Part shown: one piece after another, positions 572-15,195 of the stretch
How positions within the stretch are numbered: position 1 is the stretch's first letter
Layout of the letters: the number at the start of each line of letters is the position of its first letter
IMG/VR virus record: IMGVR_UViG_2778261510_000012
Source of the DNA: a virus
Lineage: Duplodnaviria; Heunggongvirae; Uroviricota; Caudoviricetes
DNA: 22,380 bases
Strand: one strand, 5' to 3'
Made by a program: the position numbers and the translations under genes
Notes under the pieces: generated by a model
Seen by the model: the letters and a program-made list of their open reading frames with translations, nothing else
Database searches by the model: none
Told to the model about the DNA's origin: nothing

Positions 572-1690
572 TCAAACAACCAATTTAACCCATTCCTGAC
601 CACGAGTATCGTTATAACGATCGGTGGTTGCTTGGACTTTATGTCCCAGTAATGTTTTTGTATCGATACCCTGTGCGCGGTACAGTCGTTCTGACAGGGA
701 GCGTTGTTCATGAAATGTTGGTGGTGTTTTTCCTGCTGGTGGAGTTATTCCTGCCAGATCCCGCGCTTTAGCAAAGTAGTCGCTCAGGTTATCTTTACTC
801 ATTGGTTTTGGTTGTTTCTGGTGCCGACTATGAATCAGGTATGGACTCAATATTCTGTCCTTGCATCCATCAATCACTTCTTTTAGCGATATTCCAATGG
901 CATCACAGCGTAGCGTAAGCGGTAACGCCAGACGCATTCCGGTTTTTCCCTGGGTGATATGCAAGTGTTCGTTCCACACATCTGAAAAACGCATGTGGCA
1001 AATGTCATCACGGCGCTGACCAGTAACAATCGCAAGAAGCATTGCGTTACGGATAAAGTGTTTTTCTGGTGTTGAATTGTAAATTTTTTGCCAGTCCTCC
1101 AGGGTGAGTCTGGCTCTGGTTACTTTAGGGATCGGTTTACGGGTAGCCTCCGGAGGATTCCATCCAGGAGGAACTTCCCCTGCATGCTGTGCTTCTTTAT
1201 AAATATCAACCCATAATCCACGATTTACTCTCGCTGTGCTGACCATGTCTTTATCCAGCCACTCATCCAGTATTAATGCAAAGTCTCTTACTTCCAGTTC
1301 TTTCAATGGGTGGTTTCCCAGACGGGAAACCAGGTATGCAGCCATTCGGGCTTTTTCTTTGTGAGTTGTAGCTGCAATATCTCCATTTTTCAGTCGCGCG
1401 TCCTGTATTTTCAGATATCGATCAACCCATGCCTTTAATCTGATACCCCGACGTTTTGTTGCTGACGGACTTTCATCAATTTTGCGCATGAAATATTCAG
1501 CTTCTGCTGCAGCTATTCGCTGATTGGCTGTGGAAGCGATTTTTTCTGCTTTGCCTTTGTCTGTTCCGAGACCGTGAAATTTTCCAGTCACAGGGTTTTT
1601 ATACTGGTAGTAAACCCTGCCAGTTCTGCGATCAAACTTTTCGTAAAGACCGGTTACGTCAGTGCTGTTTTTTCGTGGCCTCGGTGACAT
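572..1690 (-). CDS. int: Tyrosine recombinase, lambda Int family (prophage integrase)
   Basis: 372 aa; N-terminal arm-binding-like region and C-terminal catalytic region align by eye with lambda Int (AMLLAIVTGQRRDDICHMRFSDV, HEQRSLSERLY, LLGHK...TDRYNDTRG); start overlaps xis stop as in lambdoid phages. Confidence 0.9.
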   Translation of the reverse strand: MSPRPRKNSTDVTGLYEKFDRRTGRVYYQYKNPVTGKFHGLGTDKGKAEKIASTANQRIAAAEAEYFMRKIDESPSATKRRGIRLKAWVDRYLKIQDARLKNGDIAATTHKEKARMAAYLVSRLGNHPLKELEVRDFALILDEWLDKDMVSTARVNRGLWVDIYKEAQHAGEVPPGWNPPEATRKPIPKVTRARLTLEDWQKIYNSTPEKHFIRNAMLLAIVTGQRRDDICHMRFSDVWNEHLHITQGKTGMRLALPLTLRCDAIGISLKEVIDGCKDRILSPYLIHSRHQKQPKPMSKDNLSDYFAKARDLAGITPPAGKTPPTFHEQRSLSERLYRAQGIDTKTLLGHKVQATTDRYNDTRGQEWVKLVV

Positions 1691-1928
1691 GAGTTAAAAT
1701 CTCCTTCAGTGCATCATCATCGCCAGTATGAATTTCCGGCGCAATTCCCGTTTCACCAGGTCCAACAAATACTGCCCGGCGATCTATCAGCCAACGCCCA
1801 CGAATTTTTTGTGGTCTTGGAACGATGTATCCTAGTTTTCCGTATTTCACCAGGGTAGTGTTTGTTATTGGGAGACTGAACCGTTTTGGCTTCCACTCAT
1901 CGAGCGTTATCAGGTACTGTTCGCTCAT
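1659..1928 (-). CDS. xis: Excisionase-like protein
   Basis: 89-aa ORF immediately upstream of and overlapping int; first ATG at 1928 preceded by GGAG; position and size typical of lambdoid Xis (the six-frame track extends to a GTG at 1937). Confidence 0.65.
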   Translation of the reverse strand: MSEQYLITLDEWKPKRFSLPITNTTLVKYGKLGYIVPRPQKIRGRWLIDRRAVFVGPGETGIAPEIHTGDDDALKEILTHVTEATKKQH

Positions 1929-1989
1929 GGCTATCACTCCGGAACGCGCCAGTTGCAGAATACCAACGACAACTGGCGACAGTTGAACA

Positions 1990-4461
1990 TTAAAAATCAG
2001 CCTGACTCGGGATCAGTTTTTGCCAGATAGCTGAAACGTATTTTGCCTGGTAACGAGCGTCATCAAGTGCATTATGGCGCTCACCTTCGAATGGGATAGC
2101 AGTTCTGGCATCGAAGTCTATGGCTTTCCCCAGCTCAACGATTGTGCGTACATCGCGATCGTTGCAGTAGCGCCACGGGCAGGGGATACCCTGTCGTTCG
2201 TATGAACGGCGTAAAATCACGTTGTCGAAGTTGGCCCCATTACCCCAGACCTGAACAAAAAATTCACCGGAGTTTTCGTCGATAAATTCCCGCAATTGCA
2301 GTAGTGCATCATCTAACGGGATTTCATCGGTCATAATGGCAGACTGCGCTTCACGTGATTGCTTCAGCCACCATTTAATGACGTCACGATCAATGACTCC
2401 GCCAGCAGTATCCAGATCGATGGTCTTGCTAAATTCCGGCCCCATCTCTCCGGTTTGTGGATCGAAAAATATTGCGCCTATTGAGATAATCGGGGCATCG
2501 GGATTTTTTCCCATTGTTTCAAGGTCGATCATCAGATGAATCCCCGCTCTGCTGGTGGATGTGAGCTTATAATGACCATTCACCTTAATTAAGGGATCTG
2601 TCGCCTCGCCAGTTTTATTATCGCTGGCGTGATGCTGATTGCCGCCAGGGTTCTCCTTGTGTGGATGTTCAGCGCCTTCCATTTCCTCCGGATCATTTTC
2701 CTGAACTTCAACCTGATTCTCTTCATCGAATGTTTCCTGGTATGTTGCGTCGCCCATCACCGCGCCACAATCAGGGCAGTTGCCGCCACCGCTCTGACCG
2801 CAGGCGGTGCAGACTTTTTCCGGTTCCTGTTGCGCTACTGGTTCGGATTGTTTCGTTTCTGGCTCGTTTTGTAACGCATTTGGGCTGTTTTGTTCCGCTT
2901 TCTGGTCGTTCTGTTCCGTTTCTTGCTGGTTCTGGTTCACAGAATCGCGGGTTTCAATCCCCTTCACCCATTTCGGATCATTCGGATCGCTAATCCCTGC
3001 AACAAATTCACCACGTGATACTGCAAGCAGTTCATCGGCGTCAGGCTGGCTGATATTGGCTGCCCGCATAATTTTGTTTACTTCGTCAGCGGTAACTTTT
3101 ACCGGCTCTGGTTGTGCGGTCGTGTCAGATGCACCAGTATTTTGTTGTGAACCTGAGTATGTACCGTTTTTGCGGGCGAAATATTCTTCTTTCGTGATTT
3201 CAGTAGCCCCGGCAGCCAGCGCCTTATCCAGACCAGAAAGTTTGTTTGCGCGACCGTATTTTTCGCCATTCTTGTCGGTGAAGAGGAAGTAGAACGGCCC
3301 CTCACGCTCTACAGATGGTTCGACTTCCACTTTGCATTCGGTTTTTTCGTTGTCCGGAATTGCCGTTTCCACTGCATCAGTTTCTGGTACTGGCGACGAG
3401 AGAGTATCAGTTGCGCTCTGATTTCTTCCTTCATCTTCAAACACGCCCTTTGTAGTCAGGTATTCAGTAATGTATTTGTTCAGTGCCACAGGGTCTTTGT
3501 GAATGTCGATCGGACGTTCACGGACAAGGCCAAAAATAGTCTGGCGGTCGTAGCGAAGGGCATCAGGCTGTTTGCGCATTGATGCCGAGATACGCTTCCA
3601 GTCTTCGCGGTCGTTGTCGATAACTTCTTTTTTTGCCCAGCGATGGATGCTGCCGTCAATGTTTCCGGCATCCACATCACTAGGCCAGAGAGCGTAGGCC
3701 AGTTCGTCATCCAGTGTTTTCCATGTCTGCTTGTATTCGCGATGAATGGCAGCAATGACCGGGCTGATTTTTCCTGTTGAATTTTCAGTGTACTGTTGAT
3801 TGGCTCTGGCGCGGGCGAGATCAACAACAGACGTGTATTTTCCGGTTTCCTTGCGTTCACCTTCGCGACGTTTTTTCCAGATGCACATCTCTGCCTGAAT
3901 TTCGGGCCATTTGGCACCAGGCTTACATTTATGCTTAACCCACCCGATGGCATGCAGCTTAAGCTCCGGATACATGGCGTTTACTTCTGGCATTTTCATC
4001 AACGCTTCAACGATATGGCCGTCGAATGTTGCCATGTCTTCCTGCAACAATTCCTGTGCGCTAATCACCATATCAACAGTGATGTTTTCACATGTGTCGA
4101 ACTTAACCATGACAGCGTTCTGTACTTCAGGGGCCAGCTTGTCAAAAGTGACGTTCATCGGATCTGATTCAGTCTCAACCGGGACAAAGGAAGCAGACTC
4201 CTCATCCCAGCGGTTTTCCTGCATATATTCAGCATCCCAGGAATCGAGGGCAGGGCGGGGTATACCGGGTTTATCCTCGCAGACAAGAAATTTATAAGCG
4301 CAGTCCTGAGCAGCCGGATAATGTTCCAGGAATTGCCAGTGAAATTTTGCGCGGGCGCGACGTTCATCACCGGCTTCAATGGCAGTAGCTACAGCGACTG
4401 CACCTTCTTCCTTTATTGCCTGTTCGTCCGGAATGGCGGCGCAAATAAAGACTTTACTCAT
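1990..4461 (-). CDS. Large prophage exonuclease-domain protein (YdfE-like); C-terminal DnaQ-like DEDDh 3'-5' exonuclease domain
   Basis: 823 aa; the C-terminal ~190 aa carry the three DEDDh motifs (MIDLETMG, WGNGANFDNVIL, HNALDDARY); internal CTACGQSGGGNCPDCG zinc-ribbon-like motif and an acidic/Gln-rich low-complexity stretch; occupies the exo position between xis and dicB/ydfD. Confidence 0.75.
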   Translation of the reverse strand: MSKVFICAAIPDEQAIKEEGAVAVATAIEAGDERRARAKFHWQFLEHYPAAQDCAYKFLVCEDKPGIPRPALDSWDAEYMQENRWDEESASFVPVETESDPMNVTFDKLAPEVQNAVMVKFDTCENITVDMVISAQELLQEDMATFDGHIVEALMKMPEVNAMYPELKLHAIGWVKHKCKPGAKWPEIQAEMCIWKKRREGERKETGKYTSVVDLARARANQQYTENSTGKISPVIAAIHREYKQTWKTLDDELAYALWPSDVDAGNIDGSIHRWAKKEVIDNDREDWKRISASMRKQPDALRYDRQTIFGLVRERPIDIHKDPVALNKYITEYLTTKGVFEDEGRNQSATDTLSSPVPETDAVETAIPDNEKTECKVEVEPSVEREGPFYFLFTDKNGEKYGRANKLSGLDKALAAGATEITKEEYFARKNGTYSGSQQNTGASDTTAQPEPVKVTADEVNKIMRAANISQPDADELLAVSRGEFVAGISDPNDPKWVKGIETRDSVNQNQQETEQNDQKAEQNSPNALQNEPETKQSEPVAQQEPEKVCTACGQSGGGNCPDCGAVMGDATYQETFDEENQVEVQENDPEEMEGAEHPHKENPGGNQHHASDNKTGEATDPLIKVNGHYKLTSTSRAGIHLMIDLETMGKNPDAPIISIGAIFFDPQTGEMGPEFSKTIDLDTAGGVIDRDVIKWWLKQSREAQSAIMTDEIPLDDALLQLREFIDENSGEFFVQVWGNGANFDNVILRRSYERQGIPCPWRYCNDRDVRTIVELGKAIDFDARTAIPFEGERHNALDDARYQAKYVSAIWQKLIPSQADF

Positions 4462-4553
4462 TTTGTTTTACCTCATTACAGATTTAATGGTGAACAAATC
4501 CCTGCCATTGCTGGCATATAAGAATGAAATCGGATGTTTATTACGGAACTGTT

Positions 4554-4745
4554 TTAAAGACCTGCCGGGATTTCGTTACTATCCTGGTGAATAACTTTAT
4601 CGACCGGGTAACAGTTACCGGGAATTTTCTGTTCGGTTGCTGCTGCCATACATTCCTGCATTGTTCTGTGAACACTGACTGCAATATCAACTGGCTCTCC
4701 GGAAACAAGAAAAACTGTCAGAACATGTGCAAATGCTGTATTCAT
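4554..4745 (-). CDS. ydfD: YdfD-like small lysis protein (63 aa)
   Basis: 63-aa ORF starting at an ATG that overlaps the dicB stop (ATGA); size and position match ydfD of the Qin dicB operon as I recall it. Confidence 0.6.
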   Translation of the reverse strand: MNTAFAHVLTVFLVSGEPVDIAVSVHRTMQECMAAATEQKIPGNCYPVDKVIHQDSNEIPAGL

Positions 4746-4930
4746 TGCCAGCATCCTTTTTGTATCGGACGTAAACGGGCCAGCATTGAAAGAATGCATA
4801 TTTTATTTAATAACTCCCGTTCGTGTTTTCTCTTGTTAATGGCATCTTCAGTAAATACAGGGTTACTGATAGTGACACCAATTTCAAAACAACCTTCAGA
4901 CGTATTAACGTTTGGTAATAACGTTTCCAT
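4742..4930 (-). CDS. dicB: Cell-division inhibitor DicB
   Basis: 62-aa translation METLLPNVNTSEGCFEIGVTISNPVFTEDAINKRKHERELLNKICILSMLARLRPIQKGCWQ is near-identical to my recollection of E. coli DicB; the track ORF 4742..5035 is an in-frame upstream extension. Confidence 0.85.
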   Translation of the reverse strand: METLLPNVNTSEGCFEIGVTISNPVFTEDAINKRKHERELLNKICILSMLARLRPIQKGCWQ

Positions 4931-5099
4931 TATCGCGTCCTCAACAATGAATTTTGTGATGCGGTGCCTGGTGCCTCCAGGTGACGTTAACCAGTTAACA
5001 ATTAACGTCGGATACAGAGAATCCACCCATAACACTGTTTTTGGTTTTAACTGTTCCGCGTGCGCTTAGCCGCATTCACCGCATCACAAAATTCACTTT

Positions 5100-5157
5100 A
5101 AAAAGGGCGGCAGAGCAGCCACGGAGTAAAACTGATACCGCCAAACGTCACCAGAAA
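5100..5157 (-). ncRNA. dicF: DicF small regulatory RNA
   Basis: Minus-strand sequence TTTCTGGTGACGTTTGGCGGTATCAGTTTTACTCCGTGGCTGCTCTGCCGCCCTTTTT matches the DicF sRNA as I recall it (about one mismatch), ends in a GC stem plus U-tract, and lies about 170 nt upstream of dicB. Confidence 0.75.
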
Positions 5158-5490
5158 ATTGATAACAGAGGGCGTTGTAGCGGGGTTGTCACTTAAGCGT
5201 ATGGTCAACCTGACAACCCGGTGTCCTCAACGGGGAAGGAATAACCCCGCCATACTTACCGTCGCGCCATTTCGCGGAGTGCCACAACCGGAAGCGCACG
5301 GTCGACGAAAATTTAACGACAGGCTATCTATGAACCAGCTACCTCGCCGTGCGCTTTCGCGTTATGGTCTGACTTTTCAGGGAAATATCCTTTCAGTAAA
5401 CTGTCAGTGCCGGATGCTCACCCGTGTCCGGCGCACGCACTCCACCTCACCCGTGGAGAACTCCTTAATTACCAACCCTCAGGAGGGTGA

Positions 5491-5724
5491 ATGTTAAAAT
5501 CAACTCTTATTGCTAAATGCCTTTATCAAAATCGCATGGTAAGCGGCATTTCAATAGGCGAGTCTGCAGTTAAAAGTATTTTCGAAGAGTACTTCACCGG
5601 GCATGATTTTAATAAATGGAATACCAAATTACCGCCAGCAGTTTCAACGCGTATTCTGAAAGCAACTGAAAGAGCAAGTACAATTCGCGTTAACTATTTC
5701 ATTAAAGATTTGTGGGATCTTTGA
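5491..5724 (+). CDS. Hypothetical 77-aa protein, plus-strand gene of an AT-rich cassette inside the dicB operon
   Basis: ATG at 5491 preceded by a strong SD (AGGAGGG, 4-nt spacer); AT-rich; its 3' end overlaps the 3' end of the convergent 135-aa gene by 23 bp; no recognisable motif. Confidence 0.45.
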   Translation: MLKSTLIAKCLYQNRMVSGISIGESAVKSIFEEYFTGHDFNKWNTKLPPAVSTRILKATERASTIRVNYFIKDLWDL

Positions 5725-6109
5725 TATCCACAGAGCCTAAAGTATGTGCATATGGATGTGCTATTGTGCGCCCTCGCAGATTTGCATCATTTTCTAAATT
5801 CACTGAACGAAACAGGGCATCAACAAGGCTCTGTACAATGCAAAGGCAATCGAAGACTGTCGCTGTTTCTGTTTTGATTGATGAAAGAACATGGCCATTC
5901 ACGCAAACAGAAATTACCCGTTCATTAACATCGCTTTCCTGCTTTTGATTATCAGAACCATATAGCCCAGAAAAAGCATTGCGCACATTACGAACCATAT
6001 TATCGATGGTTTCTTTTTTGGTGTATGCCGGGTCAATTTTCACCAGACTATCACCGAGAGTCGTTGCAGCAATTGTCTGGATTTCTTTTGGTAAATCTTT
6101 AAATTCCAT
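5702..6109 (-). CDS. Hypothetical 135-aa protein (operon-embedded cargo gene)
   Basis: ORF with RBS (ACGAGG) 22 bp downstream of the ydfC-like gene on the same strand; AT-rich relative to flanks; no recognisable motif. Confidence 0.6.
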   Translation of the reverse strand: MEFKDLPKEIQTIAATTLGDSLVKIDPAYTKKETIDNMVRNVRNAFSGLYGSDNQKQESDVNERVISVCVNGHVLSSIKTETATVFDCLCIVQSLVDALFRSVNLENDANLRGRTIAHPYAHTLGSVDIKDPTNL

Positions 6110-6131
6110 TATTAGCCTCGTTGGTTAGCTA

Positions 6132-6350
6132 TTAACGCGGGTATGTAATCATTCTGGCAATGCTCAATGCCGCTGCTTTTTCCAGATTGGTGATATCCTG
6201 CTCCAGAGCGGACAGATTTTCAGCTTGCTTAGCCCTGGCTTCATTGGCCCATTTCAGATCCTGCGCTGCCTTAATTTTCTGGCGCATCCACTCATAAAGT
6301 TCATCATCGGTATAGTCTGGCGCGATGATGACGGGTTCTCGTTTCTGCAT
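6132..6350 (-). CDS. YdfC-like small protein (72 aa)
   Basis: 72-aa ORF with RBS GAGGAA; third of three small ORFs (51/42/72 aa) whose sizes and order match ydfA-ydfB-ydfC of the Qin dicB operon as I recall them. Confidence 0.55.
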   Translation of the reverse strand: MQKREPVIIAPDYTDDELYEWMRQKIKAAQDLKWANEARAKQAENLSALEQDITNLEKAAALSIARMITYPR

Positions 6351-6957: not shown

Positions 6958-7596
6958 TTAAATATCTTGTTGAATTTTAAAGCATACGCCCAATATGCAA
7001 GATAGATCATCCAGCATAATTGAAGGGTAGCGAGGATTTGTGGGGACTAAAAGAATATCCGGCCCTTCTATCTCCAGTTTACGAATGACAGGTGTTGTGG
7101 TCCCTTTGGGTAAGGCAAGGACAATATTTCCTGGTTGTACGGTTCGATCGGGATCAACAAAAACTGTTGAACCATTTGGGATGGAAACTCCCCCACCAGA
7201 TGTTGACATACTGTCACTCTCTAGAACAACTGCAAAGGTATTGGCCGGGATTTCTCCGACAAGCTGCACACAAGAGGTTATTGAGGAATTTTTCATATAA
7301 TCACTCCAGCTTGCTGCCTGCTGAAGTGATAGTAGCGGAACCGTTTTTATCGGCGGTAAAGATAGATCAAGCGAATCACCTGTATTTAACTCTCCTCCAT
7401 TAAGAAGCCAATTTTCGTTTACTTTCAATATCTTTGCCAGTGAACTTATGTAACGCGAGGACGGCGCTCCTCCACCGTTCATCCATTGACTTACGGAGCC
7501 TTTTGATGCGCCAGTGGCATTGACAAGGTCTTTGCCTTTCAGGTTTAGCGCATGCATACGTTGGGTTATGCGTTCAGATATTGTTTGCTTGCTCAT
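6958..7596 (-). CDS. Prophage repressor, CI-like (N-terminal HTH, C-terminal S24 LexA-like peptidase)
   Basis: 212 aa; N-terminal HTH-like segment (QTISERITQRMHALNLKGKDLVNATGASKGSVSQW); C-terminal S24-like Ser (ESDSMS) and Lys (VIRKL); divergent from the cro-like gene; no SD before the ATG, consistent with a leaderless pRM-type transcript. Confidence 0.85.
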   Translation of the reverse strand: MSKQTISERITQRMHALNLKGKDLVNATGASKGSVSQWMNGGGAPSSRYISSLAKILKVNENWLLNGGELNTGDSLDLSLPPIKTVPLLSLQQAASWSDYMKNSSITSCVQLVGEIPANTFAVVLESDSMSTSGGGVSIPNGSTVFVDPDRTVQPGNIVLALPKGTTTPVIRKLEIEGPDILLVPTNPRYPSIMLDDLSCILGVCFKIQQDI

Positions 7597-9945: not shown

Positions 9946-10012
9946 CGAGATTCAAGTGCATTAGTTCAGATGCAAATTGACTTTTTGTGGCACAGGGTAG
10001 AGCTAGCGTGGT

Positions 10013-10038
10013 TGTCCGCTTTGTGCCAACAGCGGACA
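10013..10038. other. Inverted repeat / hairpin between convergent genes
   Basis: TGTCCGCT - 10 nt - AGCGGACA perfect 8-bp stem; no strong U-tract. Confidence 0.4.
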
Positions 10039-10091
10039 TTATAGATGGTATATGTAGAAAGTGAACATGCGTAGATTGTATGATTTAGCCG

Positions 10092-10316
10092 TCACTTAAT
10101 TATTGGATAACTCACACAAGTATGACCGTTGCTTATCGCATACATTTGGTTTCCCTTAAGATTTACAAATGGAAATGTCGTATACTCATAATTTATAGAG
10201 GTCATATTAAATGTAAGGAATTTATCTTCAAGTTCTAATTTTGTAGAGTGGGCAGGGTATGTTCCTTCATTTTTCATTGTGATAATAAAACCGATAGGGA
10301 AAAATGTAAAGCACAA
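10092..10316 (-). pseudogene. Probable frameshifted 3' portion of the HNH-like gene
   Basis: A +1-frame ORF overlaps the end of 10274..10900; a single-base insertion in the A5/T5 run at 10300-10304 would fuse both into one ~265-aa frame; the track start is TTG and the first ATG has no SD. Confidence 0.4.
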
Positions 10317-10900
10317 ATAAATGCCACATGTCCTTCGTTCATAAATGCTACACTTTGAGCGGATATGTGCATTCTGTGTGGGTAAAACCAGTAGTAAATA
10401 TCATGAGTTTCCTCAAAACTTGAATTTTTACCCAAAACATAATCCTTTAAAGGTGTATAGAAGGGGCTATCTACGGGTTCTTTTTTACAATCTTCAACTG
10501 AAGTTGCTGATAGCACGTGCCCAATCATAGCCTTAGTGAAAGATATGCTATCAAAAGGTATTCTAATGAATGGATATACATTCATACCATTCATATATCG
10601 CCTTAACTGTTCTTTAAAGGACTTTGTTACATTTTCAATTGCAACATCGAGCCCACCTAATACCTTATTGTTACAGTGGCTGCAAATGGTTCTGAAATAA
10701 GAGCCATTTTTAGCATTTAATGGTTTAACTGGTTCCTGAATACCAAAAAATTCGCTAACTGTTTTCTGCAAAACAGGGCCTAAGGTTATGGCGCACTTTG
10801 GAGGAACATGATCTTTTGTGAGCAAGCCATATTTCCCACAAATATTGCAATAACCTTCAGTAATGCCATTGTGCTTCCATCGTTCACTAATTTTCGTCAT
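10274..10900 (-). CDS. AT-rich cargo gene encoding a protein with an HNH-like Cys/His motif
   Basis: 208 aa; RBS GAGGGA; CNICGKYGLLTKDHVPPK (CxxC-x9-DH) and CSHCNNK motifs resemble the zinc-bound HNH fold with an unusually long spacer; low GC relative to flanks. Confidence 0.6.
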   Translation of the reverse strand: MTKISERWKHNGITEGYCNICGKYGLLTKDHVPPKCAITLGPVLQKTVSEFFGIQEPVKPLNAKNGSYFRTICSHCNNKVLGGLDVAIENVTKSFKEQLRRYMNGMNVYPFIRIPFDSISFTKAMIGHVLSATSVEDCKKEPVDSPFYTPLKDYVLGKNSSFEETHDIYYWFYPHRMHISAQSVAFMNEGHVAFICALHFSLSVLLSQ

Positions 10901-11524
10901 TTTTATTCCCTCAGTAGCATAAGCTATCTATACGTTTTTTAATCCTATCAAAGATACAACTTAACGTCAGGAAAATGATAGTGTTTATCTAAGTAATACA
11001 ATTAACTTCAACGCGTGACAGTCTGCTTTTCGCTCAAAGCGGACTAGAAGGTTAGCTTGCGTCGGACTTGGCGTATTTAAAGAAGTGCTGGTGGTGACTG
11101 GTTGTTGTGTTCCATTTCTACAGAACAAAATCACAGAAACTATACCCAATAGTTGTATTGAATCACTGACGAGACAGCCTCATATTTATCAGGACTGGTG
11201 TACGTCCAATACAGGAGGTTGTGGTGCTGGTTCTCAAATGTGCGCTGGCTATTGCTGCTGTAATGGCAATTTATTGCCTTGCTGTTGTTCTTATGGATCG
11301 CCTTTCTGACTGATTTCATATTGGCGAGGTAACGGGAGTTAAGTAGAATGGCTGCGGGTGCTTGAGGCTATCTGTCTCAGGCATGAACACCAAAGGCAGA
11401 TAGAGAAAAGCCCCAGTTAACATTACGCGTCCTGCAAGACGCTTAACATTAATCTGAGGCCATATCTATGCTCTACACACATAGGTTAGCCTCTTACGTG
11501 CCGAAAGGCAAGGAGGAGCAGTCT

Positions 11525-11680
11525 ATGAAGCAGCAAAAGGCGATGTTAATCGCCCTGATCGTCATCTGTTTAACCGTCATAGTGACGGCACTGGTAACGA
11601 GGAAAGACCTCTGCGAGGTACGAATCCGAACCGGCCAGACGGAGGTCGCTGTCTTCACAGCTTACGAACCTGAGGAGTAA
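11525..11680 (+). CDS. hokD: Hok-family type I toxin (HokD/RelF-like)
   Basis: 51-aa translation MKQQKAMLIALIVICLTVIVTALVTRKDLCEVRIRTGQTEVAVFTAYEPEE matches HokD/RelF as I recall it; AGGAGG RBS 8 nt upstream; the track ORF from 11468 is an in-frame extension. Confidence 0.85.
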   Translation: MKQQKAMLIALIVICLTVIVTALVTRKDLCEVRIRTGQTEVAVFTAYEPEE

Positions 11681-13779: not shown

Positions 13780-14145
13780 ATGACTGAACGCATAGAATTT
13801 GTTTTGCCTTACCCGCCGACGGTGAATACCTACTGGCGACGTCATGGCAATACGTATTTCATCTCGGAAGCCGGAAAGCGTTATCGCCGTGATGTGGCGC
13901 TAATTGTTCGCCAGCAGCGGCTGAAATTAAGCCTGTCCGGAAGGCTGGCGATAAAGATTATTGCAGAGCCACCGGATAAGCGCCGCCGCGACCTGGACAA
14001 TATCCTGAAGGCACCACTGGATGCGCTGACGCATGCCGGACTACTTATAGACGACGAGCAGTTTGATGAAATCAATATTGTGCGCGGTCAGCTCGTTCCT
14101 GGTGGGCGGCTGGGGATAAAAATCACAGAACTGGAGTGCGCATGA
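13780..14145 (+). CDS. rusA: Holliday junction resolvase RusA
   Basis: 121 aa; LPYPPTVNTYWRRHG...RRRDLDNILKAPLDALTHAGLLIDD...GGRLGIKITE aligns by eye with E. coli RusA including the catalytic acidic residues. Confidence 0.9.
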   Translation: MTERIEFVLPYPPTVNTYWRRHGNTYFISEAGKRYRRDVALIVRQQRLKLSLSGRLAIKIIAEPPDKRRRDLDNILKAPLDALTHAGLLIDDEQFDEINIVRGQLVPGGRLGIKITELECA

Positions 14146-14831
14146 ATAACCAGTATTTACAGTTTGTGCGTGAGCAGCTCATTATCGCCACCGCTGATTT
14201 GAGTGGGGCAACAAAAGGTCAGCTTGAAGCCTGGCAAGAGAATGCCATGTTCGATACAGGGCGTTACAGGCGAAAAAAAATCCGGTACCGCGATGAAGTG
14301 ACTGGAAAAATGATAACGCGGGATAATCCACCAATTCCGGGAAAGCAATCGCTGGCGAAGGGGACGTCAATTCCTCTGGTCAGTCCGGTTGAGTTTTCGA
14401 CATCATCGTGGCGGCGGGCTGTTCTGTCTCTTGAAGAACATCATAAAGCCTGGTTGTTGTGGTGTTACAGCGGGAGTATTTGTTGGGAATATCAGATCGC
14501 GATAACACAGTGGGCGTGGAATGAATTTAATACTCAATCCGGTACCAGAAAAATTGCAGGGAAAACGCAGGAACGCCTGAAAAAATTAATCTGGCTGGCG
14601 GCGCAGGCAGTAAAAGCAGAACTTTTTGGTGGGGAAGGTTATGAATACCAGGAGCTGGCATTACTGGCGGGAGTGACAACTAAAAACTGGTCCAAAACAT
14701 TTACTCGTCACTGGGTTGCAATGAAACACATTTTTTACCGACTGGATAGTGGGGCTTTATTGTTTGTAATGAGAACGCGTTCAAAACAAAAGGCGGCATT
14801 TTCAAAGCAAAGTGTTGCAAAAGTAGATTGA
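14142..14831 (+). CDS. Putative late-gene regulator (Q-like antiterminator by position)
   Basis: 229 aa from the ATG overlapping the rusA stop (ATGA); sits immediately upstream of a promoter-like sequence, a short terminated leader and the tRNA/lysis region; family not confirmed. Confidence 0.45.
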   Translation: MNNQYLQFVREQLIIATADLSGATKGQLEAWQENAMFDTGRYRRKKIRYRDEVTGKMITRDNPPIPGKQSLAKGTSIPLVSPVEFSTSSWRRAVLSLEEHHKAWLLWCYSGSICWEYQIAITQWAWNEFNTQSGTRKIAGKTQERLKKLIWLAAQAVKAELFGGEGYEYQELALLAGVTTKNWSKTFTRHWVAMKHIFYRLDSGALLFVMRTRSKQKAAFSKQSVAKVD

Positions 14832-15040: not shown

Positions 15041-15115
15041 GGCCCTTTAGCTCAGTGGTGAGAGCGAGCGACTCATAATCGCCAGGTCGCTGGTTCAAAT
15101 CCAGCAAGGGCCACC
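15041..15115 (+). tRNA. tRNA with CAU anticodon, tRNA-Ile2 (lysidine)-like
   Basis: 75-nt cloverleaf: acceptor GGCCCTT/AAGGGCC, D-arm GCTC-AGTGGTGA-GAGC, anticodon loop CTCATAA, T-arm GCTGG-TTCAAAT-CCAGC, 3' ACCA; closely parallels E. coli tRNA-Ile2; Met cannot be excluded from sequence alone. Confidence 0.85.
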
Positions 15116-15118
15116 ATT

Positions 15119-15195
15119 CCGCCACCAGCTCATCTGGATAGAGCATCAGCCTTCTAAGTTGATTGTGCGAGGTTCGAGCACCCGGTGGCGGACCA
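15119..15195 (+). tRNA. tRNA-like sequence with Arg (UCU) anticodon loop, probably degenerate
   Basis: D-arm GCTC-ATCTGGATA-GAGC and anticodon arm TCAGC-CTTCTAA-GTTGA are canonical and the 3' end is ACCA, but the acceptor stem has one mismatch, position 8 is C, and the T-stem pairs at only 3 of 5 positions. Confidence 0.4.

Follow-up and report, generated by a model that had tools for sequence, protein, structure and literature searches.

A predicted DexA-type 3'-5' exonuclease on a RecE-related N-terminus in the leftward early operon of a lambdoid prophage

The DNA considered here is a stretch of 22,380 nucleotides from IMG/VR virus record IMGVR_UViG_2778261510_000012 (Caudoviricetes), which we call the window, and our subject is a single long gene on its minus strand, the open reading frame (ORF) 1990..4461, which we confirmed to begin with ATG and to encode 823 residues. 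Within the leftward early operon (ydfA-ydfB-ydfC-DicF-dicB-ydfD-exo-xis-int) it stands last before the excisionase and integrase genes, in the slot that in Rac is held by recE-recT, so that a preliminary description of this DNA was right, in the operon sense, to put the gene at the position of lambda exo/bet or Rac recE/recT. The PHROG family phrog_2082 ('exonuclease') covers the protein from end to end (1-823 of 823 residues), and its parts, by position in the window, are as follows.

1990..4461, minus strand: full ORF, 823 residues, identical to WP_089563989.1, annotated 'exonuclease [Escherichia coli]'
4162..4461, minus strand: D1, residues 1-100, small alpha/beta domain with a ferredoxin-like fold (predicted)
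3796..4149, minus strand: D2, residues 105-222, helical (AlphaFold2)
3442..3729, minus strand: D3, residues 245-340, helical, remote homologue of RecE 272-373 (hhalign, BLASTP, AlphaFold2)
3166..3300, minus strand: D4, residues 388-432, beta-hairpin plus helix, GPFY...GRANK...EEY.ARKNG (AlphaFold2)
2590..3042, minus strand: RecE-derived segment, residues 474-624 (BLASTP; partial PRK09709 match at residues 444-626)
2767..2811, minus strand: zinc-ribbon-like motif C551-x2-C554...C562-x2-C565, followed by GDATY (conserved cysteines, weak DZR match)
2023..2538, minus strand: predicted DEDDh (DnaQ-like) 3'-5' exonuclease domain of the DexA/Rv2179c family, residues 642-813 (PF16473)

Domains of the protein

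As far as its sequence can tell, the catalytic domain is a DnaQ-like DEDDh nuclease and not a PD-(D/E)XK one, as the preliminary description had proposed. The Pfam match to PF16473 (Rv2179c-like 3'-5' exoribonuclease domain) has an E-value of 2.6e-66 and 223.1 bits against a cut-off of 27, spans profile positions 2-177 of 177 and is accompanied by a weaker second match, to RNase_T. The DEDDh residues D646 and E648 (in DLET), D746 (GANFD), and H796 and D801 (HNALDD) align with D7, E9, D119, H186 and D191 of T4 DexA; in an alignment of 78 sequences, made up of the window copy and 77 related viral-contig copies, four of the five residues (D646, D746, H796 and D801) never vary and E648 is present in 76. 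It is the PF16473 match together with these conserved and DexA-aligned residues that makes the DEDDh assignment correct. The only solved relatives found by sequence search were 8kel and 8ken, a 227-residue 'Exodeoxyribonuclease' (E 1.6e-5), which we take to be T4 DexA because the product of T4 dexA (NC_000866, 227 residues) aligns in the same way. As a separate observation, the fused DEDDh domains differ at residue 766 (nucleotides 2164..2166), which aligns with DexA W152, the Trp reported to stack on 5-hydroxymethylcytosine. The window copy has Cys there, most of its close E. coli relatives have Tyr, and the copies from Citrobacter and Kluyvera, with several others, have Trp, a variation that could reflect diversifying substrate specificity.

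The region in front of the nuclease is less readily matched to known families. A Pfam scan of residues 1-640 gave nothing except weak zinc-ribbon matches at the CxxC pairs, and the precomputed annotations of close homologues contain two new Pfam families, PF27430 and PF27432. An AlphaFold2 model of residues 1-440, built on a 37-sequence alignment, has a mean predicted local distance difference test score of 86 (333 residues at 90 or above) and contains four domains. D1 and D2 together form what we call the 'YdfE-type' N-terminal module, which Rac RecE does not have, and residues 1-240 belong to no known family. D3 is more informative, since a profile of residues 241-341 matched RecE 272-373 with an hhalign probability of 94.6% (E 7e-8), and BLASTP found the same relationship at E 2e-4. 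D4 is the most conserved stretch in the family, with invariant columns at G388-Y391, G403-K407 and E425-T434. The preliminary description had raised the possibility that profile searches would assign the N-terminus to a known family of single-strand annealing proteins (SSAPs). No such profile match was found, no Rad52, RecT or Erf fold is present in the tested residues 1-440, and a Foldseek search of the N-terminal model against BFVD gave no match at E 1e-3 or better; we therefore rejected an SSAP identity for this part of the protein.

Closer to the nuclease lies the segment most plainly shared with RecE. Residues 474-624 are 74% identical by BLASTP to residues 471-614 of Rac-SA53 RecE (1048 residues) and contain a PNDPKW box, the Gln/Glu-rich acidic stretch and both CxxC pairs; in the ORF protein and in RecE alike, this segment directly precedes the nuclease domain. 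The zinc-ribbon and acidic linker of the preliminary description are both present and, given this identity, represent the RecE segment: the CxxC pairs stand at residues 551-554 and 562-565, and the linker, at about residues 501-600, has an acidic, Gln-rich composition, with D+E at 0.15-0.33, Q reaching 0.20 and K+R no higher than 0.07. The motif cysteines are kept in 76-78 of 78 homologues, and the CxxC region gives weak matches only, to Pfam DZR (E 0.022) and Zn_Ribbon, at E 0.02-0.2. Beyond this segment, BLASTP finds no similarity in the ORF to the C-terminal part of RecE (about residues 615-1048 in Rac-SA53) and PF16473 stands there instead, which indicates that the ORF lacks the PD-(D/E)XK end. 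Assignment as a RecE equivalog was likewise rejected, as the protein scores 283.7 bits with NF007259 against a cut-off of 1269, and only residues 444-626 match, to profile positions 437-603.

The zinc-ribbon-like motif also occurs outside this family. A 49-residue query for other carriers returned only 8 short fragments and was uninformative, and a regular-expression search over the fetched loci found the motif only in the ORF family, in RecE and in the tail of a Dam-like DNA methyltransferase. The methyltransferase, encoded at 4465..5445 (minus strand) of viral-contig locus L116 and also in L114 and L119, has the C-terminus CDACGHHGGGYCPDCGPVTGDATY, with the same CxxC...CxxC-GDATY motif as RecE and window residues 551-575, and its gene adjoins one for an exonuclease resembling EcD, a homologue of DexA in E. 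coli. Because this tail is shared, the zinc-ribbon-like piece appears to behave as a mobile tail module common to different DNA enzymes.

The gene is under purifying selection. When 53-77 homologues are compared, the ratio of nonsynonymous to synonymous substitution rates (dN/dS) comes to 0.11-0.17 for the folded domains and to 0.44 for the acidic linker and RecE-derived segment, and 70 of the 77 related viral-contig copies are 804-831 residues long. The low dN/dS of the folded domains and the retained catalytic residues argue that this is no chance ORF, and the pattern of substitution indicates a gene that is maintained and not decaying.

Operon, distribution and relatives

In the Qin prophage of K-12, the leftward early operon of the window is known as the dicB operon. 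The features around the exonuclease gene are these.

572..1690, minus strand: tyrosine integrase
1659..1937, minus strand: excisionase, directly downstream of the exonuclease gene (phrog_629)
4554..4745, minus strand: ydfD (lysis protein in K-12), directly upstream in the same operon
4742..4930, minus strand: dicB (cell division inhibitor)
5105..5156, minus strand: DicF small RNA (Rfam RF00039, 75 bits, E 3.5e-15)
5122..5107: DicF terminator-like site
6958..7596, minus strand: cI/LexA-like repressor, at the head of the leftward early region (phrog_4, phrog_8558)

There is no space for an SSAP gene between the exonuclease ORF and xis, and searches of the wider neighbourhood bore out the earlier statement that no RecT, Erf or Sak-like gene is apparent nearby. 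A PHROG scan of ten leftward and ten rightward early ORFs identified a repressor, Cro/CII-like regulators, a replication initiator, a Ren-like protein, an HNH/DUF968 protein, RusA, Q and several proteins of unassigned function. None of these ORFs matched a RecT/Redbeta, Erf or Sak family, with PHROG as the only search that extended to Sak4/RecA-like and Gp2.5-like proteins. Neither in the window nor in 80 viral-contig loci with a DEDDh-type gene did tblastn find a match to Rac RecT, to lambda Bet, Exo or Gam, to P22 Erf, Abc1 or Abc2, or to a Rad52-like query. Most of the 80 loci have xis and int directly behind the gene, after which the contig ends. With no SSAP gene detected in the operon, we rejected a two-component recombinase of the Red, RecET, Erf or Sak type.

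The gene is very common in E. coli, being matched by megablast in 4799 of 5426 complete genomes, 3533 of which have a single place covering at least 80% of it; the number of matching places per genome has a median of 2 and a maximum of 10. A sequence carried by the majority of complete E. coli genomes is accordingly no novelty: WP_089563989.1 has 23,183 members in its 90%-identity cluster, and databases already contain the protein together with its DEDDh domain and N-terminal families, labelling the gene interchangeably 'exonuclease', '3'-5' exoribonuclease' or 'exodeoxyribonuclease VIII'. At 91-96% DNA identity it is found in the sequenced lambdoid phages mEp460_ev081, Evi, Tritos, HannyBb and PhiR42_1, as well as in PPompW prophages of enterohaemorrhagic E. 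coli; the carriers mEp460, Evi, Tritos and HannyBb are plaque-forming. In the Qin prophage of K-12, YdfE is 98% identical to residues 1-256 and its gene ydfE (b1577) is a pseudogene cut by IS2E, from which the window gene can be recognised as the intact form of ydfE. Kinship with exoD of the K-12 prophage DLP12 was ruled out for want of any similarity.

A wider view comes from the N-terminus. An exhaustive HMMER search with residues 1-440 recovered 192 representatives among 1.84 billion cluster representatives, and those that are named are all Enterobacterales (Escherichia, Shigella, Klebsiella aerogenes, Enterobacter, Citrobacter, Atlantibacter, Kluyvera and Yersinia); a narrow-alignment profile scan of genome contigs gave only 6 loci, from Escherichia, Shigella and metagenome-assembled genomes. 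When modules were mapped on the long representatives, the YdfE-type N-terminus (residues 1-240), the shared mid module and/or RecE-type N-terminal sequence were found to precede C-termini that differ. One end, type (a), is the DEDDh domain (P0121, P0124, P0144, P0228 and others); type (b) is a RecE-type PD-(D/E)XK nuclease (Pfam DUF3799/PDDEXK; P0130, P0181, P0207, P0264 and others); and type (c), present in about 20 representatives, is a Rad52-like annealase of about 290 residues. The N-terminal module of residues 1-240 occurs in relatives of all three of these C-terminal types. A fourth domain, type (d), of about 200-270 residues (phrog_26058), ends 7 representatives (P0126, P0215, P0219, P0224, P0231, P0243 and P0261); P0126, the one scanned, had no Pfam match. 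Databases label type (c) proteins 'exodeoxyribonuclease VIII', 'exonuclease' or 'hypothetical', and those called 'exodeoxyribonuclease VIII' are probably mis-annotated.

These ends differ in their company as well. Among type (b) loci with a YdfE-like N-terminus, recT lies directly downstream in L088 and L089, and L087 stops at the contig edge. The resulting pattern, in a sample that is small outside the DEDDh type (type (b) is represented by two loci that are informative, type (c) by a single one), is that the PD-(D/E)XK end goes with recT, the DEDDh end goes without a detected SSAP, and in the Rad52-like end the annealase is built in. We found no description of the RecE slot, or of part of its scaffold, with a nuclease of a different fold and no annealase, nor of one scaffold as a platform for three DNA-transaction domains. 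The DEDDh domain also exists on its own: tblastn with residues 631-823 found 665 phage records, lytic phages included, and stand-alone proteins of about 190 residues are 53-59% identical to this region in Lys8385Vzw (Escherichia) and OS31 (Serratia), with about 56% identity for the stand-alone protein of Yersinia phage YeP2 (tblastn). No annealase is annotated nearby in Lys8385Vzw, OS31 or YeP2.

Several further observations concern the prophage as such. The best-matching annotated genome is that of E. coli EC416, whose prophage adjoins potC and has the order LexA/cI-like repressor, ydfA, ydfB, ydfC, a hypothetical gene, dicB, ydfD, the ORF, xis and int. In the window the repressor gene at 6958..7596 is full length, encoding 212 residues with helix-turn-helix and S24 peptidase-like parts; in the EC416 prophage, otherwise 99.8% identical, the annotation shows only a 339-nucleotide LexA-family coding sequence and the cro-like gene is frameshifted. 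The window prophage may still be inducible. DicF sits in a stretch of about 670 bp (5035..5702) without a minus-strand ORF, overlapped by a plus-strand ORF at 5491..5724 (phrog_10348, function unassigned). On the plus strand, a sok antitoxin RNA at 11356..11530 (RF01794, 112.6 bits) implies a hok/sok type I toxin-antitoxin locus (hokD-like in the matching genome), and tRNA-Met(CAT) and tRNA-Arg(TCT) lie at 15041..15195, just downstream of the Q-like antiterminator gene (14136..14831). Finally, a low-GC island at 10000..11000 (GC 0.35 against about 0.48 around it) holds a minus-strand ORF at 10274..10900 (208 residues, phrog_21495), opposite in strand to the early-right genes, and looks like a moron insertion.

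What the protein may do

Our preferred interpretation, for which we put the chances at about even, is that the protein is a 3'-5' DNA exonuclease on a RecE-family scaffold which processes DNA ends, and is not part of a two-component Red/RecET recombinase. Residues 1-630 would form a non-catalytic scaffold of the RecE family, with four folded domains and a disordered acidic linker bearing the zinc-ribbon-like motif, and a C-terminal two-metal-ion DEDDh exonuclease of the DexA/Rv2179c type would take the place of RecE's PD-(D/E)XK nuclease. As the gene is a distal member of the leftward early operon, the protein would be expected to be made on induction or infection. Its C-terminal domain would then strip nucleotides from free 3'-OH DNA ends in the 3'->5' direction, with the N-terminal modules acting as an adaptor that may deliver the nuclease to, or hold it at, whatever the N-terminal region of RecE recognises. 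Ends arising during phage replication and recombination could be its targets, through trimming of 3' tails or flaps or through 3'->5' resection. Having no cognate annealing protein, it would not make up a pair of the lambda-Red/RecET type, and any part in recombination would run through trimming, resection, or host or co-resident functions. By analogy, this proposal is supported by DexA and EcD, both shown biochemically to be 3'-5' DNA exonucleases (PMC12153337).

A number of points weigh against this interpretation. Recombination that depends on an SSAP or on RecA normally requires the polarity opposite to 3'-5'; with no SSAP detected either, a role in recombination is suggested by association only. 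The SSAP search consisted of PHROG and four tblastn reference families, and a novel annealase could be encoded among the small ORFs. Sharing the 'same scaffold' with RecE does not define a mechanism, because no function has been established for the N-terminal region of RecE itself (PMC11611040). PF16473 is named for an exoribonuclease, and RNA could be a substrate. Additionally, since stand-alone versions occupy the same operon slot without any scaffold, the nuclease may have a scaffold-independent job. Lastly, no functional study of the gene or of ydfE was found in the literature, even though it is among the commonest prophage genes of E. coli.

The main alternative, which we hold to be unlikely, is that the protein serves superinfection exclusion, degrading incoming and possibly modified DNA from its 3' ends, with the scaffold directing it to the ends of invading molecules. 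The gene adjoins dicB, and DicB has been reported to protect cells from phage infection by inhibiting inner-membrane receptor proteins. A benefit to the host would also fit a gene that is intact, under purifying selection and present in most E. coli genomes, at a median of 2 and up to 10 places. The closest precedent is EcD (HAK9828821.1), 36% identical to residues 631-823, which degrades only DNA containing 5-hydroxymethylcytosine (5hmC) and protects against T4, an activity termed 'HREX' (PMC12153337). DexA itself is a 3'-5' DNA exonuclease whose substrate switches with its oligomeric state (Kang et al. 2025, PMC12153337); its residues W152 and D169 are implicated in 5hmC recognition, and loss of the tetramerisation Asp at D90, which is Ala78 in EcD, accounts for EcD being dimer-only (PMC12153337). 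In the window protein, W152 is replaced by C766 and D169 by A780 (the D169 column being less certain in the alignment), and the Asp of D90 is retained as D718. Expression in the lysogen is doubtful as well, given the position of the gene at the distal end of a repressed early-left operon and a promoter scan in which no signal in front of the ORF rose above shuffled expectation. PADLOC gave only a weak and generic DEDDh match (E 1e-4), and exclusion would leave unexplained why the same scaffold is joined to the RecE nuclease with recT or to a Rad52-like annealase.

Two other uses of the nuclease domain seem to us very unlikely, to a similar degree. It might scavenge, degrading host or damaged DNA (single-stranded DNA, oligonucleotides) to nucleotides in lytic growth with no specific role in recombination, as would suit a domain that belongs to the family of DexA, for which scavenging of host DNA has been described (PMC12153337), and that stands alone in so many phages, lytic ones among them. 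Bulk degradation would not require a conserved 630-residue N-terminus under purifying selection, and the association of the scaffold with RecE and annealases points to specific DNA transactions; moreover, we know of no degradation of the host chromosome by temperate lambdoid phages. Alternatively, it might be a 3'-5' exoribonuclease like Rv2179c that trims or turns over operon transcripts, small RNAs such as DicF, or host RNAs. In favour of this, the Rv2179c-like exoribonuclease domain is the top Pfam match, with RNase_T behind it, many copies are named '3'-5' exoribonuclease' by NCBI, and the operon also encodes DicF, a small RNA that undergoes processing. On the other hand, those NCBI names are automated transfers, the solved relatives found by sequence are exodeoxyribonucleases only, EcD as the closest characterised E. 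coli relative acts on DNA, and the scaffold is common to DNA nucleases and annealases. That the gene is a decaying, functionless recE-like remnant in defective prophages we find scarcely credible. The IS2-truncated pseudogene of K-12 and the many partial database entries would agree with decay, but most 'partial' entries are labelled so by NCBI, many of them on contigs of a few kb, and the uniform length of the viral-contig copies (804-831 residues in 70 of 77), the almost invariant catalytic residues and cysteines, the dN/dS of 0.11-0.17 in the folded domains and the presence of the gene in viable phages mean that this reading is already largely refuted.

Returning to the DNA end-processing exonuclease on a RecE-family scaffold, a more general version of it would make the YdfE/RecE N-terminus a DNA-end adaptor of enterobacterial prophages that carries three interchangeable ends, which we regard as unlikely. 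If it were true, the DEDDh version would run SSAP-independent 3'->5' resection, whether for recombination, end repair or the end-targeted destruction of foreign DNA, a pathway not described for lambdoid phages. The processes that come closest to it are poxvirus recombination, driven by the 3'-5' exonuclease of the viral DNA polymerase, and, in E. coli, in vivo cloning that depends on XthA. More immediately, the gene shows that a nuclease whose fold is not that of RecE, and whose polarity is predicted to be the reverse, can occupy the RecE slot in lambdoid prophages without an annealase; DEDDh carriers should for these reasons not be scored as Red/RecET-proficient from an 'exonuclease VIII' label. 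The value of the locus lies mainly in the correction of such annotations and in a tractable route to the function of RecE's N-terminus: swapping on the scaffold offers a handle on the role of the N-terminal two-thirds of RecE, which boosts linear-linear recombineering. Furthermore, the relatives with Rad52-like ends are candidate new annealases for recombineering.

Comparison with known systems

Lambda Red (Exo/Bet), like the window gene, is the product of a lambdoid leftward early operon. The ORF has no homology to Exo, Bet or Gam and differs from Red in its fold, its predicted opposite polarity and its lack of an annealase. Rac RecE (exodeoxyribonuclease VIII) occupies the same distal leftward early slot near xis and int, and both proteins are large, with a long non-catalytic N-terminal region that has no assigned function (PMC11611040). 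The two part ways in the nuclease, which is DEDDh and predicted 3'-5' in the ORF protein but PD-(D/E)XK and 5'-3' in RecE, in the recT that follows recE only, and in residues 1-240 of the ORF, which are unrelated to Rac RecE.

Among DEDDh nucleases of temperate phages, the gene of Serratia phage OS31 is also the last of the early-left genes before xis and int, and those of Lys8385Vzw and YeP2 lie near the integrase end of the same leftward operon; unlike the ORF, all three stand-alone exonucleases are entirely without the RecE-like scaffold. T4 DexA belongs to the same DEDDh family as the C-terminus of the ORF, with all five catalytic residues aligned, but it is a stand-alone protein of 227 residues from a lytic phage, with 25% identity and extra loops, whereas the ORF carries an N-terminal extension of 630 residues.

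EcD resembles the window protein in being a DexA-family DEDDh exonuclease on an E. coli mobile element. We identified it through the cloning primers in the supplement of PMC12153337 and a scan of viral contigs; it has 189 residues, starts MIDTETLGNGPDAA, and has Ala at residue 78, as in PMC12153337. It corresponds to a stand-alone 196-residue ORF at 5679..6269 (minus strand) of L116, an integrase-bearing element, although a prophage or mobile-element origin of EcD goes unmentioned in PMC12153337. The EcD-like gene stands alone beside the Dam-like methyltransferase gene and near an integrase, whereas the window domain is fused; EcD has Ala at the DexA D90 position and keeps W152, where the ORF has D718 and a Cys in place of the Trp. 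Membership of HREX was accordingly rejected on both of its defining features, the recognition residues (C766 and A780 here) and the loss of D90 (kept here as D718), and the ORF belongs to the same domain family but not to HREX.

The closest counterpart of all is ydfE of the K-12 Qin prophage, which is the same gene in the same operon, ydfA-ydfB-ydfC-dicF-dicB-ydfD-ydfE. The K-12 copy is broken after residue 256 and has lost the nuclease domain and everything else downstream, all of which the window gene retains.

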